From Gammaproteobacteria bacterium (lineage in GTDB: Bacteria; Pseudomonadota; Gammaproteobacteria; Eutrophobiales; Eutrophobiaceae), in contig OZ245331.1 of the NCBI GenBank assembly GCA_965226155.1, forward strand, positions 1,338,605-1,402,604: a stretch of 64,000 nt of DNA. The letters are read 5' to 3'. The notes under the pieces are model-generated. The model was not told the DNA's origin and ran no database searches. It was given only the letters and a program-made list of their open reading frames with translations. Shown here one piece after another: positions 17,769 to 58,739 of this stretch; within the stretch, counting starts at the first letter, position 1; each line of letters starts with the position of its first letter. A program made the position numbers and the translations under genes.

Positions 17769-18135
17769 TCAGGCCTCGAATGCATTTTTATACCAGTTTA
17801 TTTCCGGCGATAGCAGATTGCCGGTCAATGTCACTATATCAAACCGACATGAATTAATATGTTTATGATGTAATTGTAGGTACTGTTGGCTGGTGTAAAT
17901 AATTTTTTTAAGCTTTTTTATCAATAGTTTCAATTGGATCTAGAAAATCTGAAGATGACCGGTAACGTACCTCTATAAATACTGTAATTTGGTTGTCTTC
18001 CATTATCAGGGCAATCTCTCCTGATCGGGTTCTATAGTTTCGGTGCATCAGTATAAGATCATTTTTTTCAAGGAAAGCAAGCGCCTGGTCTTCAGATAGT
18101 TTGCCGCGTTCAGACGTTGTGTTGGTATCAATCAA
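17769..18135 (-). pseudogene. yraN: YraN-family (UPF0102) endonuclease-like gene interrupted by a 1-nt insertion in an A6 tract
   Basis: Track ORF 17908..18135 encodes only the N-terminal 75 aa (..GEIALIMEDNQITVFIEVRYR..). Dropping one A from the A6 run (plus-strand T6 at 17914-17919) restores the conserved C-terminus ..CRFDIVTLTGN..EINWYKNAF ending at 17769. Confidence 0.8.
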
Positions 18136-20000
18136 AAAGTATTGCCGATATCAATGATTTTTGGTTCTCCATTAATAAATTTTGCCCATAGTAAATTTCG
18201 ATGGATGACGCCATCATCTGTCATAAATAATTCTCCAGTTGCTCCGGTATAACGATTGGTGCGATCAGCAGCCATTTTACCGAGGTTGGTAATGATCCGG
18301 AATGAATCAACCCCGAATGCATAGTAACGTGGGAAGGTCGTGCTTTGTGACTTCCAGCGACTATTTATTAATAACTGAATATCATCTTGTTTTTCAGTTG
18401 GTTGAAGTACCCAAGGAATATCGACTAACTCTACCCCGTTTAGATCACTGTCACTCTGAGGATTAGGTTTCCCGCGATAAATATGAGAGATGGAATAAAT
18501 TGGCAATTCACCCGCACGGAAAAACCGTAATTGCGGAACAAGCTGATTTGCAGGAAGATTGTTAGCAACCATGAATATGAAATCTGCATCTTCACGTACA
18601 CGACTTACACCATTCATGTTCCTACCAATTTTTTGCTTTAATGCGTTGATTCTGTATTCACTGCTTTCGATGTTAAGTAGAGATTTCACGGGTGCGATAA
18701 AATCTTTGGATGAGGGGTCATAGTTAACACGCTCTAGAACGATGCCTCCCATCTTCTCCCATACATTATTGAAAGCATTGAATATCCTATTCCCCAATTC
18801 GTCTGCTGGCGTGATGATTAATACTCTATTATGGCCTTCAAATATGCCGCGTTCTGCTACTTGTCTTGCCTCATCTTCTGGTAATAAACCAAATTGAATC
18901 AGTCTTGCAGGGGATAAAAGTTGATAGTCACTGTTAACAAAATCGTCTTTTTCAATTTGGTTCAGAGCCAGCGTCCTTACCGGCAATGTCCCTCGATCAT
19001 ATAATGATCTAACAGCCTTTTTTTCCAAAGGACCCACGATAAAGTCCGCTCCTTCTTCGACTGCCTTATCGTATATAGTATTTATATTGAGAGAATTGGC
19101 ATTATAAATTCTGACTTTTGGTTTGTACTCTTTTTCAACGAACCAAGCCGCAAGGAAACCGTCTCTGATTCGCTCAGAATATCTTTCAAAGCCACCCGTT
19201 AACGGTAGTAATAATGCAATTTGTTGAGGTTTGAAACTGGATACCATTGTCATTTCCAGAATTTGAGAAACTATGGACAAATTTGCAGGGTGACGAGGAT
19301 AGTAATCCTGCCACGCTCCAACAGCGTTTTTCAATTCTTCTGGTTTGGAGGCCAGTGTCTTGTTGATAACGGCCAGTTCTATCCACGGATTCAGATCTGA
19401 TTGGCTAGTGATCTCCAATTCGATCATTTCCTGGGCATCAATTTTATTTAGGTTTCTCCATATGAGTTGCAGGTTTTCAAGTTTTTCAGATGCATCTTGA
19501 ATATATCCCTGCATTTCCAGCCGTTCCTTAGTTGCTTGCAGATAAGCCATTTGTTTGTTGAAGAGACTTGCCCTTAGTCCATGGTAAATCAGAATAAATT
19601 CATCTGGTAATTCGTGTGAATTACTGATCTCTTCTAGTAGGTTCAATGCTTTAATAACGTTGCTCTGGAATAGGGCCAGTTTTGCCAGAATAATATTTTT
19701 TTGCGATAGCTGTTGGCTGTTTCCAGAATTAATTTGTGTATCGTTGATCAATTGGATAGCTGCCTCAGGCCTACCGTCTTCAATAAGTGCATTAGCGGCC
19801 ATAAGTTGATATTCAACCATACGAGCAGGGTATTGCTGGGAGAGCTGTATATATTCTTCAGCTGCCACAGCAAACTGTCCTGTATGCAGCAATTGTTTCG
19901 CCTCAAAGGCAGGATCGATGGCGGGGCCTTTGAATGTAGTGACAGCGCTACACCCATATAACATAAATAGGGTAATGATTAAAAAACAGAGAAATCGCAT
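18132..20000 (-). CDS. lpoA: penicillin-binding protein activator LpoA (YraM)
   Basis: 622 aa lipoprotein (lipobox LYGC), N-terminal TPR-like region plus C-terminal periplasmic binding fold; divergent from rsmI as in E. coli. Confidence 0.85.
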   Translation of the reverse strand: MRFLCFLIITLFMLYGCSAVTTFKGPAIDPAFEAKQLLHTGQFAVAAEEYIQLSQQYPARMVEYQLMAANALIEDGRPEAAIQLINDTQINSGNSQQLSQKNIILAKLALFQSNVIKALNLLEEISNSHELPDEFILIYHGLRASLFNKQMAYLQATKERLEMQGYIQDASEKLENLQLIWRNLNKIDAQEMIELEITSQSDLNPWIELAVINKTLASKPEELKNAVGAWQDYYPRHPANLSIVSQILEMTMVSSFKPQQIALLLPLTGGFERYSERIRDGFLAAWFVEKEYKPKVRIYNANSLNINTIYDKAVEEGADFIVGPLEKKAVRSLYDRGTLPVRTLALNQIEKDDFVNSDYQLLSPARLIQFGLLPEDEARQVAERGIFEGHNRVLIITPADELGNRIFNAFNNVWEKMGGIVLERVNYDPSSKDFIAPVKSLLNIESSEYRINALKQKIGRNMNGVSRVREDADFIFMVANNLPANQLVPQLRFFRAGELPIYSISHIYRGKPNPQSDSDLNGVELVDIPWVLQPTEKQDDIQLLINSRWKSQSTTFPRYYAFGVDSFRIITNLGKMAADRTNRYTGATGELFMTDDGVIHRNLLWAKFINGEPKIIDIGNTF

Positions 20001-20047
20001 AATTAGATTATAGTATTTACAGATAGATATTCGACCAGCCTAACCAA

Positions 20048-56508: not shown

Positions 56509-57935
56509 TCAATATATTCCAATGTCGAAATAGGAACGAGCAATTTTACTGATCGCAACTACGTACGCCGCTGTCCGAAAGTCTTTTACTTTTTCATTAC
56601 TTTGCAGGATCTCACTCATTTCCTGATAGGCATGTCGCATAGTGTCATCTAAGCCGGAGCGTACTAAATCCAGTTCGTCTGCACCTCTAACTACTTCTTT
56701 CTTAATCCAATCGGGCGCTTCTTTTTGAGTCATGGATTCCATTGCCGTAATTATGTGTTGTCCGCGCAATTCATCGAATCGTCGTTCCATACGTCCAAAC
56801 CGGATGTGTGATAGGTTTCTTATCCATTCAAAATATGAAACGGTTACACCGCCGGCATTAACGTAGGCGTCTGGCAGGATGGTAATACCTCGTTCCCTGA
56901 GAATTTCATCTCCCTCAAATGTCACTGGCCCATTAGCCGCTTCAACGATAAGTTTTGTTTTAATTTGGCCAGCGTTATCCTTTGTAATTTGTGCCTCCAT
57001 CGCTGCCGGAATCAGTATGTCACATTCTAGCTCCAGCATGGACTTGCCGTTTTCCGTGAAGGCTACATCTGGATAATCTTTGATTGTTTTGTTGGCATTG
57101 ATATATTCCCTTACACGTTGTACTGATAGACCTATCTTGATCAACTAGGGCGCCATCCTTTTCAATAATCGCTATAATTTTTGAATCATCTTCTTCATCT
57201 AATAGCTTTCCCGCGTAGTATCCAACATTTCCTAGGCCCTGAATGACAATTCGTTTGCCGGCTAGCTCACCAGTCATTCCTGTTGCTTTGCTATCAGCTG
57301 CATGTCGGAAAAATTTTCGCATGGCATAGACAGTCCCACGACCTGTGGCCTCAACCCTGCCTCGTATTCCACCATGATGGACAGGTTTTCCGGTAACGCT
57401 GGCCGCATAGTTAATATTTTCAGGATGTAAATGCCTGTAGGTATCTGCTATCCAAGCCATTTCACGTTCACCTGTTCCCATGTCTGGAGCAGGAACATTT
57501 GTTGAGGGACTGATGAAATCCTTGCGGATCAGTTCACGTGCGAATCGCCGTGTTATTAACTGGATTTCGTCACGACTATATTTAGATGGATCGATAAGTA
57601 GACCACCCTTAGATCCGCTAAATGGCACATCTACGATTGCACATTATATAAGTCATAAGTGCGGCAAGTGCTTTTACTTCATCTTGGTTGACGATAGCGG
57701 CATACCGGATGCCACCTTTTGAAGGAAGCCTGTGAGTGCTGTGTGTTGCGCGCCAGCCAGTGAAGACTTGTATCTTGCCTTGAATGTTGACAGGAAAATT
57801 TACTTCAATTATTGCATCACATGCCTTGATAGCACTAGCTACACCCGGGTCCATATCCATTACAGCAAATGCCCGATCTGCCATGAAGTCAACGCTTTCA
57901 CTGAAAGATAGCGACGTTTTCTTATTAGCAGCCAT
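56509..57935 (-). pseudogene. Glu/Leu/Phe/Val dehydrogenase family gene (probably glutamate dehydrogenase), broken into three frames
   Basis: ORFs 57618..57935 (N-term, ..GGIRY..ALAALMTY), 57020..57628 (VPFSGSKGG.., NAD-binding GLGNVGYYAG), 56509..57144 (C-term). Junctions explained by single-base insertions near 57632..57640 (TATATAA) and 57130..57136 (GATAGGT). Confidence 0.85.
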
Positions 57936-57989
57936 AAGCCATCTCCTGATTATTTAAGGTTATTTATTTTTAATTATTACCAGCTTAGC

Positions 57990-58739
57990 CTAACTATTGA
58001 TATTATTCATCCAGATCAGGCTTGCCGTGCGTCCCGTTCGGTTCTCACGGCGATATGAGAAATATTTATCTGAATGCTCATATGTGCACTCATTGGCACA
58101 TGAGATATTAAAGATACCGATAGCCTCCAGAACTCGCTTAACTAGTGCACCTAGATTTGCCTGCCAACGACCTGTTGGATTCATAACGAAAGCCTCAGTC
58201 AGACCGTCTCTATATTGAAGACAGGCGTCTCGTACATCATTACCTACTTCGTAGTGTAGTGAGCAGATATGTGGTCCTATCCACGTCGTTAAGTTTTCAT
58301 TGGAACCGAACATAGTCACCGCGTTTTCAATTATTCCCGCTGTGAAACCACGCCAGCCCACATGTACAGCTGCAATTTTGGTGCCTGCCTCGTTACAAAT
58401 TAACAAAGGAATGCAGTCTGCTGTTAGGACGGCACAAATCACTCCCTGTCGTTCTGTATATGTACCGTCTGCCTCGGTAACTACACTAGCATGAGAATCT
58501 GTTATCTTACTGCTATGCGTTTGATGCAGCCAGATAGGTTCAGCTGGTAATTTGAGGTGTTCGCGAAGTCTCCGGCGATTTTGTTGTACCTCTTCGATAT
58601 TATCGTCAACATGAGCTGCCAGATTTAGTGAGTCGTAGGGTTTGTTGCTAACACCATGATTGCGGGTACTAATACCGGCATGTATCCATGGGGCTCCCTC
58701 CCAGTTCGCTGCCTGCTAAGCATTAGTAAGTTCAGTCAT
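57990..58739 (-). pseudogene. pgeF: purine nucleoside phosphorylase/laccase-like PgeF (YfiH, DUF152) with premature in-frame TAG at codon 8
   Basis: ATG overlapping the rluD stop gives MTELTNA-TAG-QAANWEGAPWIHAGISTRNHGVS.., colinear with E. coli YfiH MSKLIVPQWPQPKGVAACSSTRIGGVS. Reading frame then continues uninterrupted into the 150-aa track ORF (57990..58442); no ATG/GTG/TTG between the TAG and that point. Confidence 0.75.

Follow-up and report, generated by a model that had tools for sequence, protein, structure and literature searches.

In a 64,000-nucleotide stretch of the chromosome of an uncultured, marine-type Gammaproteobacteria bacterium (assembly GCA_965226155.1, contig OZ245331.1, positions 1,338,605 to 1,402,604 of the forward strand; this whole stretch is called the window here) we found seven lesions that interrupt five protein genes, namely yraN, pilC, pilB, gdh and pgeF. 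We consider it very probable that these lesions reflect a real, recent and stepwise pseudogenisation of dispensable genes, in which the organism is losing its type IV pilus system as one unit, in a genome where a family of IS30 insertion sequences (IS) apparently proliferates. Gene decay of this kind is well known, and what is added here is that pilBC, gdh and yraN have been lost repeatedly among sister lineages of a little-known marine clade.

All seven lesions had been listed in an earlier reading of the letters alone (the original prediction) and all were found within about 20 nucleotides of where it had placed them, one each in yraN, pilC and pgeF and two each in pilB and gdh (Table 1). 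It had described every indel as an insertion and four of the six as lying in short homopolymers; placement of the sites by DNA alignment to outgroups together with a scan of all permissible repairs gave a different picture, with five +1 insertions, one probable deletion (yraN) and one substitution (pgeF). None of the five insertions falls inside a homopolymer of at least four bases and three of them do not duplicate the adjacent base. Only the yraN lesion sits in a run of at least five bases; pilC goes from GG to GGG, and the other four insertions either adjoin runs of no more than three bases or duplicate nothing. Repair of the broken genes, by taking out one base per frameshift or by changing TAG to TGG, gives end-to-end family matches: the repaired YraN matches NF009150 over positions 4-118 of 118, PilC (405 amino acids, aa) its model over 16-416 of 419 and PgeF over 8-242 of 243, the repaired Gdh matches the Gdh family models, and PilB (574 aa) covers 100% of intact PilB proteins with a best identity of 89-90%. 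Intact syntenic orthologues are present in L001-L011, in L085 (gdh and pgeF) and in L091/L094 (pilB and pilC). From the full-length homology, the lesions seen against intact orthologues and the relaxed constraint described below, the five loci qualify as putative unitary pseudogenes, and they should be annotated as pseudogenes, neither 'fixed' nor dismissed as assembly errors.

Table 1: Positions of the interrupted genes and of other features in the window.
Feature	Position	Strand	Description
yraN (UPF0102), putative pseudogene	17769-18135	-	frame break at the A6 run 17914-17919; pieces of 75 and 54 aa
RNase P RNA	20951-21349		full length
IS30-family element, 1,068 bp	44561-45628	-	in the secA-argJ spacer; 320-aa transposase at 44568-45530
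yacG, 60-aa zinc-finger gene	47895-48077	-	intact; overlaps the end of zapD; missing from the gene list of the original prediction
pilD (prepilin peptidase)	49467-50339	-	intact, 290 aa, PF06750 and PF01478; adjoins broken pilBC
pilC (type IV pilus platform protein), putative pseudogene	50434-51652	-	+1 at 50646-50648, GG to GGG (CCC on the + strand)
pilB (type IV pilus assembly ATPase), putative pseudogene	51658-53384	-	two +1 insertions
gdh-type (Glu/Leu/Phe/Val family) glutamate dehydrogenase, putative pseudogene	56509-57935	-	+1 T at 57646, +1 A at 57133
pgeF/yfiH, putative pseudogene or very recent nonsense allele	57990-58739	-	codon 8 TAG (58716-58718), TGG to TAG at 58717

The alignments also refined the individual sites. 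The extra C proposed for the CCC run of pilC was recovered, as the outgroups read AACAT-GGTGGTC at the site, and it breaks the gene into 343 and 93 aa. In pilB, which is split into 102, 119 and 382 aa, both lesions had been assigned to extra As in A6 tracts, and here the original prediction did not hold: for the first, the best position of the extra base is within AAAGG at 53126-53131, outside the A6 run at 53108-53113, and its repair restores VKLVKDTLIKKHH and thereby matches the outgroups; the second is best explained by a T inserted at 52771, directly behind the A6 run 52772-52777, with all outgroups reading AAAAAA-GG. A repair by removing bases in the A6 runs was given up for this better supported one. 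Both single-base insertions predicted for gdh do exist; one was already correctly placed and the other had to be moved from about 57636 to the T at 57646. They split gdh into 105, 202 and 211 aa and neither is located in a homopolymer. The stop at codon 8 of pgeF also proved right, with relatives reading TGG at this position. A mis-annotated start of pgeF was considered as well, and because no ATG, GTG or TTG follows within 91 codons after the stop and three relatives have TGG behind the same upstream ATG, the TAG is a nonsense mutation and not a start error.

The chromosome harbouring the window is one contig of 2,764,786 bp that is on record in NCBI, ENA and Logan, and exact fragment proteins of the broken genes are on record from all three. 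Near-identical contigs from other assemblies were found by exact-protein look-ups. One of them, L100, is a Logan contig from the raw reads of ERR14231558 (k-mer assembly, different assembler), which matches window positions 52361-64000 (11.6 kb) with 100.000% identity and not a single mismatch or gap. Since L100 spans five lesions and matches exactly, the reads contain the two lesions of pilB, the two of gdh and the TAG of pgeF. The yraN lesion is found again in two Logan contigs (L083 and L090, covering the yraN and dcw regions) and two ENA contigs (L082 and L089 from ERZ25068966, 3x coverage).

The comparison with close relatives that had been proposed as a check was also run, and it revealed lesion sharing between strains as well as parallel losses in relatives. 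A sister strain (ENA ERZ25069169 contig_18; L084 and L088) is 99.58-99.70% identical to the window over 40.8 kb, with 145 single-nucleotide polymorphisms (SNPs), and carries the yraN and pilC lesions, both pilB lesions and the gdh insertion at 57133, but has neither the gdh T57646, which is confined to the window lineage, nor the pgeF TAG. Its gdh has a nonsense mutation of its own instead (GAA to TAA at 56907). In the sister species, represented by L085 (JGI Ga0133547_10001248; 92% identity to the window in ClpB and 96% in SecA) and the nearest outgroup, gdh is intact with 474 aa. An intact 249-aa PgeF with TGG is encoded in L084, L085 and L086, and TAG is found in L081 and L100. The contig L081 (2x coverage) has nine SNPs in common with L084 and therefore represents a third haplotype; all window lesions within its range are present, including that of pilC and both of pilB. 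Over the 40.8 kb the strains differ by no more than two indels, namely gdh T57646 and one A at 22194 in the mraZ-rsmH spacer, which shows that random indel error is very low, and there are none at all in 32 kb of intact coding sequence. Random error can be excluded because the lesions are shared and the lineage-specific extra hits are confined to the broken genes. The distribution within the window points in the same direction: for seven random hits on coding DNA the probability that none falls into an essential-class gene is 0.018, that at most five genes are hit 0.057, and that six of the seven lie within 8.1 kb 0.001.

We then compared the polymorphism of broken and intact genes between the two strains. 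The broken genes contain 18 nonsynonymous (N) and 12 synonymous (S) SNPs in 5.47 kb (3.29 N/kb and 2.19 S/kb), the intact genes 41 and 49 in 32.1 kb (1.28 N/kb and 1.53 S/kb). In the broken genes the density of amino-acid-changing SNPs is 2.6-fold higher (p = 0.0014; 0.006 if both nonsense changes are left out), and synonymous SNPs show no significant excess there (p = 0.17). Together with the nested extra lesions and the parallel loss in relatives this supports the relaxed constraint claimed for these genes, and relaxed selection would be the cause of their decay. Over the longer distance to L085 the repaired genes of the window look normal, with ratios of nonsynonymous to synonymous substitution rates (dN/dS) of 0.094 for gdh and 0.225 for pgeF, compared with 0.08-0.27 for intact neighbours (dS about 0.3-0.45), and relative-rate tests gave no acceleration of the window lineage in pilB, pilC, gdh or pgeF. 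As dN/dS is normal and no acceleration is seen, the inactivations occurred late on the species branch.

A stepwise course can be proposed from the distribution of the lesions, of which five are older than the strain split and two younger. After the split of the species from its sister species (dS about 0.36), single-base frameshifts would have been fixed, two of them in pilB and one each in pilC, gdh and, by poly-A slippage, yraN. The two sampled strains would then have diverged (0.36%), followed by the gain of the second gdh frameshift and the pgeF TGG to TAG change in the window lineage and of the gdh nonsense mutation in the sister strain. The first hit would kill a gene and make later hits neutral, and several lesions per gene are presumably explained by this.

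Homopolymer indel errors in long-read assemblies are known to split genes, and the window does resemble such cases in that single-base frameshifts split open reading frames (ORFs) in a long metagenome-assembled chromosome. The genes might accordingly be intact in the organism and the lesions be base-calling or assembly artefacts of a long-read metagenome assembly. The genome is a single 2.76 Mb contig, the names of related contigs (ctgN_2x_l) suggest a long-read assembler, and all but one of the six indel lesions are +1 insertions. Moreover, L081 shows five extra +1 insertions, several of them in short runs, and no deletions (window-equivalent positions 58371, 51600, 46581, 46246 and 45367; two of them split argJ), which are probably read-level errors at 2x coverage.

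Several points weigh against the lesions being real or consequential. The insertions in L081 demonstrate that the platform can yield +1 errors at very low coverage, and in being exclusively +1 they resemble most of the real lesions. The evidence for the lesions consists of assembled contigs and not of read pile-ups. All contigs of the species come from ERR14231557/8, ERZ25068966 and ERZ25069169, probably one project with one chemistry, and because of this one accession group a systematic chemistry artefact keeps a small residual probability for the five shared lesions. Finally, the loss of function is an inference, and the N/S ratio does not differ significantly between broken and intact genes (Fisher p = 0.21).

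Against an artefact stand the identical lesions in a raw-read k-mer assembly and in a strain differing by 145 SNPs, the very few indels between the strains, the nested lesions and lineage-specific nonsense codons in the same genes, the nonsynonymous SNP excess and the position of most lesions outside homopolymers. In addition, the sister species has a frameshift at the same yraN tract and a deletion of pilBC in its short-read assemblies. Random base-calling error is ruled out by the identity across assemblies and strains and by the clustering statistics. A systematic miscalling of A5 as A6 was likewise rejected, as neither pilB lesion falls in an A6 run and numerous further runs of A6 or T6 leave the frame intact: coding DNA contains 62 exact A6/T6 runs, at most one of which breaks the frame (yraN), and 31 coding homopolymer runs of seven or more bases keep the frame. 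Unlike homopolymer errors, the lesions recur with different assemblers and in different strains (L081-L084, L088 and L100), are clustered in a few genes (P 0.001-0.06), are mostly located outside homopolymers and are accompanied by substitutions and nonsense codons that track the strain phylogeny. We therefore regard an artefact as extremely improbable and follow the original prediction in taking the lesions as mutations, a claim that L100, the sister strain and the clustering (P 0.001-0.057) all bear out. As a method, strain-resolved metagenome contigs can separate true frameshifts from long-read errors without read pile-ups, and useful signals are nested lesions, indel-free intact genes and an excess of nonsynonymous polymorphism.

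Both pilB and pilC are needed for the assembly of type IVa pili. Beyond the window, about 0.3-5 kb past position 64000 and after sucC, we found the regulatory genes affected as well: pilS has two frameshifts and is split into 170, 156 and 198 aa (L100 positions 52-1668; L100 is identical to the window over the overlap), and pilR, seen only on the 2x contig L099 (positions 972-4972), appears broken into three or more fragments, with a copy of IS30 at its 5' end. With pilS (L100) and apparently also pilR (L099) broken besides pilBC, the pilus module seems to be decaying at two loci, with the part of pilR coming from a 2x contig only. This fits the loss of type IV pili claimed by the original prediction, and the system is probably being lost as a unit. 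The organism is thus predicted to be devoid of type IVa pili and therefore also of twitching motility and of pilus-dependent DNA uptake or adhesion. The pattern resembles known cases of pilus loss by inactivation of pilB and pilC, with pilB, pilC and pilS frameshifted, pilR apparently broken and pilD retained; the known cases are here matched by the sequences of pilB, pilC, pilD, pilS and pilR. PilD is commonly retained since type II secretion uses it too. Its constraint is possibly weakened next to the decaying genes: PilD shows nine amino-acid changes specific to the window lineage versus one specific to L085 (p = 0.02), and the SNPs of pilD between the strains are three nonsynonymous and one synonymous. 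It may thus be the following gene to decay. A search of 5.8 billion protein clusters turned up no intact PilB allele with an identity above 90%, and a scan of JGI metagenomes for the pilB site gave 0 hits.

In the sister species L085 pilBC has been lost in another way, via two deletions of 1,927 bp (pilB codon 29 to pilC codon 92) and 762 bp (pilC codon 150 to the end). The remnants, PilB codons 1-28 and PilC codons 93-149, are located at L085 positions 14261-14828, corresponding to window positions 50340-53722, and pilD, gdh and pgeF are retained intact. An earlier inactivation of pilBC, predating the separation from the sister species that deleted them, was rejected, as PilB and PilC show no rate acceleration in the window lineage; for the same reason the losses in L085 and in the window are independent. 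In a more distant lineage (PilB P0010; L091-L093) pilBC is intact and gdh is split at other sites, into 123 and 351 aa or 50 and 377 aa. The split sites of gdh and, in one contig, argJ are found at positions 5698-7115 of L091, 5382-6799 of L092 and 3172-4629 and 13576-14764 of L093, and these gdh lesions are independent of those in the window.

Such repeated and independent losses, with pilBC deleted in L085 and frameshifted in the window and gdh broken at different sites in three lineages, could also be expected if real mutations had been fixed by positive selection for loss, for example because pili serve as phage receptors or are costly and gdh is lost for metabolic reasons. That the whole pilus module including its regulators has been hit would suit this idea. 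Relaxed selection in a shared niche would, however, lead one to expect parallel loss just as much, neither a sweep signature nor a phenotype speaks for positive selection, and losing yraN or pgeF brings no obvious benefit. The apparent IS30 proliferation and the fairly high N/S of intact genes (41N/49S) rather fit a generally weak selection, and we therefore see selected loss as a rather unlikely alternative to decay under relaxed constraint.

The yraN lesion differs from the others in its position at a homopolymer. The original prediction had assumed an extra A in an A6 tract; the break at the A6 run was verified, and the extra A is probably instead the contraction of an ancestral A8. This ancestral state is suggested by homologues that carry one extra residue at the break together with A7 at the same tract in the sister species. 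A6 is found in all four contigs of the window's species, including L082, L083 and, from the sister strain, L088, and A7 in at least five samples of the sister species, including Tara and JGI short-read assemblies (L095-L098, e.g. L098 positions 2759-2765). The N-terminal fragment of the window still covers positions 2-57 of 80 of PF02021, and in both species the downstream half has stayed open and is conserved (Nd 5, Sd 7, omega 0.16).

Homopolymeric contingency loci exist in bacteria, and poly-A slippage rescues frameshifted genes of endosymbionts. Some of the broken genes might similarly be expressed via recoding or switching, in yraN by transcriptional slippage or ribosomal frameshifting at the poly-A tract, or by phase variation. 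In favour of this, the yraN tracts of the two sister species differ in length (A6 and A7), both put the gene out of frame, and the conserved downstream half is open in each. Slippage on the short poly-A tract might then keep yraN functional, with the downstream half under purifying selection. But efficient slippage needs about nine or more bases and the tracts are shorter, the shifts would have to go in opposite directions in the two species, and in the contigs examined the tract length is constant within each species without any variation within a population, contrary to phase variation. The six other lesions have nothing to do with repeats, and two corrections apiece would be required in pilB and gdh. 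The data are explained by recent slips that arose independently at a hot spot, the ancestral A8. Overall, recoding or switching is very unlikely, with a small probability left for yraN.

The IS30 copy mentioned in the original prediction was confirmed, and the element is present in multiple copies on the chromosome. Its transposase matches NF033563 over positions 1-267 of 267 and falls into a 90%-identity cluster with 202 different members. Of the variants listed, at least nine are located on the same 2.76 Mb chromosome, four of them complete and five truncated, and the copies show mosaic differences at sites that recur. The element is present in the secA-argJ spacer of the sister strain L084 and absent from that of the sister species L085. 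Exact look-ups of the window's IS30 transposase and of SecF found neither on record. All 11 SNPs between the strains in the IS30 transposase are nonsynonymous and none of the 11 is at codon position 3 (p about 0.012). Seven are at position 1, which is position 3 of an antisense ORF (44775-45599, + strand, 274 aa, without family match), and five of these are synonymous there. The SNP pattern may result from gene conversion among the copies, or from chance.

Shigella, Yersinia pestis, Bordetella pertussis and Sodalis are recently niche-restricted bacteria that show pseudogenes and IS expansion under weakened selection. The window is similar to this type of decay with respect to frameshift and nonsense mutations in dispensable genes, several hits per dead gene, modules that decay together, a multi-copy IS with truncated copies and lesions nested among close strains. 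In contrast to Shigella-type decay, the genome size is typical of the relatives: the 2.76 Mb chromosome falls inside the span of 2.2-2.9 Mb of related chromosomes and large contigs from metagenome-assembled genomes (MAGs). The relatives are derived from marine and estuarine plankton metagenomes, with 'Ca. Eutrophobius brisbanensis' (GTDB order UBA4486, estuary-derived) as the best match among species-representative genomes (86% identity in PilB and 72% in SecA), and the closest representative genomes are all MAGs. A literature search for the sample accessions had no hits. With this genome size and planktonic relatives, the host restriction that the original prediction had considered is not supported by anything we tested. 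More speculatively, the IS30 bloom and the stepwise, still polymorphic loss of the pilus module, gdh, pgeF and yraN, in parallel with the sister species, might mark an early lifestyle shift, to which we assign only a low probability. If true, the strains and species would document, as a natural time series, how a marine gammaproteobacterium of the UBA4486 type undergoes reductive evolution.

The surroundings of the broken genes are those of an ordinary gammaproteobacterial arrangement with 59 protein genes and a GC content of about 42%. Besides the dcw cluster of 16 genes from mraZ to ftsZ, the window encodes secDF, pdxB, purN and an MMPL/HpnN-like transporter, murA, hisGD, a degS-like gene, petABC, sspAB, dolP, a diaA/gmhA-like gene, yraN, lpoA and rsmI, as well as lpxC, dciA, an M23 peptidase, secA, the IS30 element, argJ, mutT-thiE, yacG, zapD, coaE, pilD, pilC, pilB, clpB, gdh, pgeF, rluD, bamD, nadE and sucDC. 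Apart from the five broken genes, the remaining 54 of the 59 and the RNase P RNA are full length according to the coverage of NCBIfam or Pfam profiles or of orthologues, including the 16 dcw genes, secA, clpB, petABC and the MMPL/HpnN-like gene, in agreement with the original prediction that every other gene of the window reads through.

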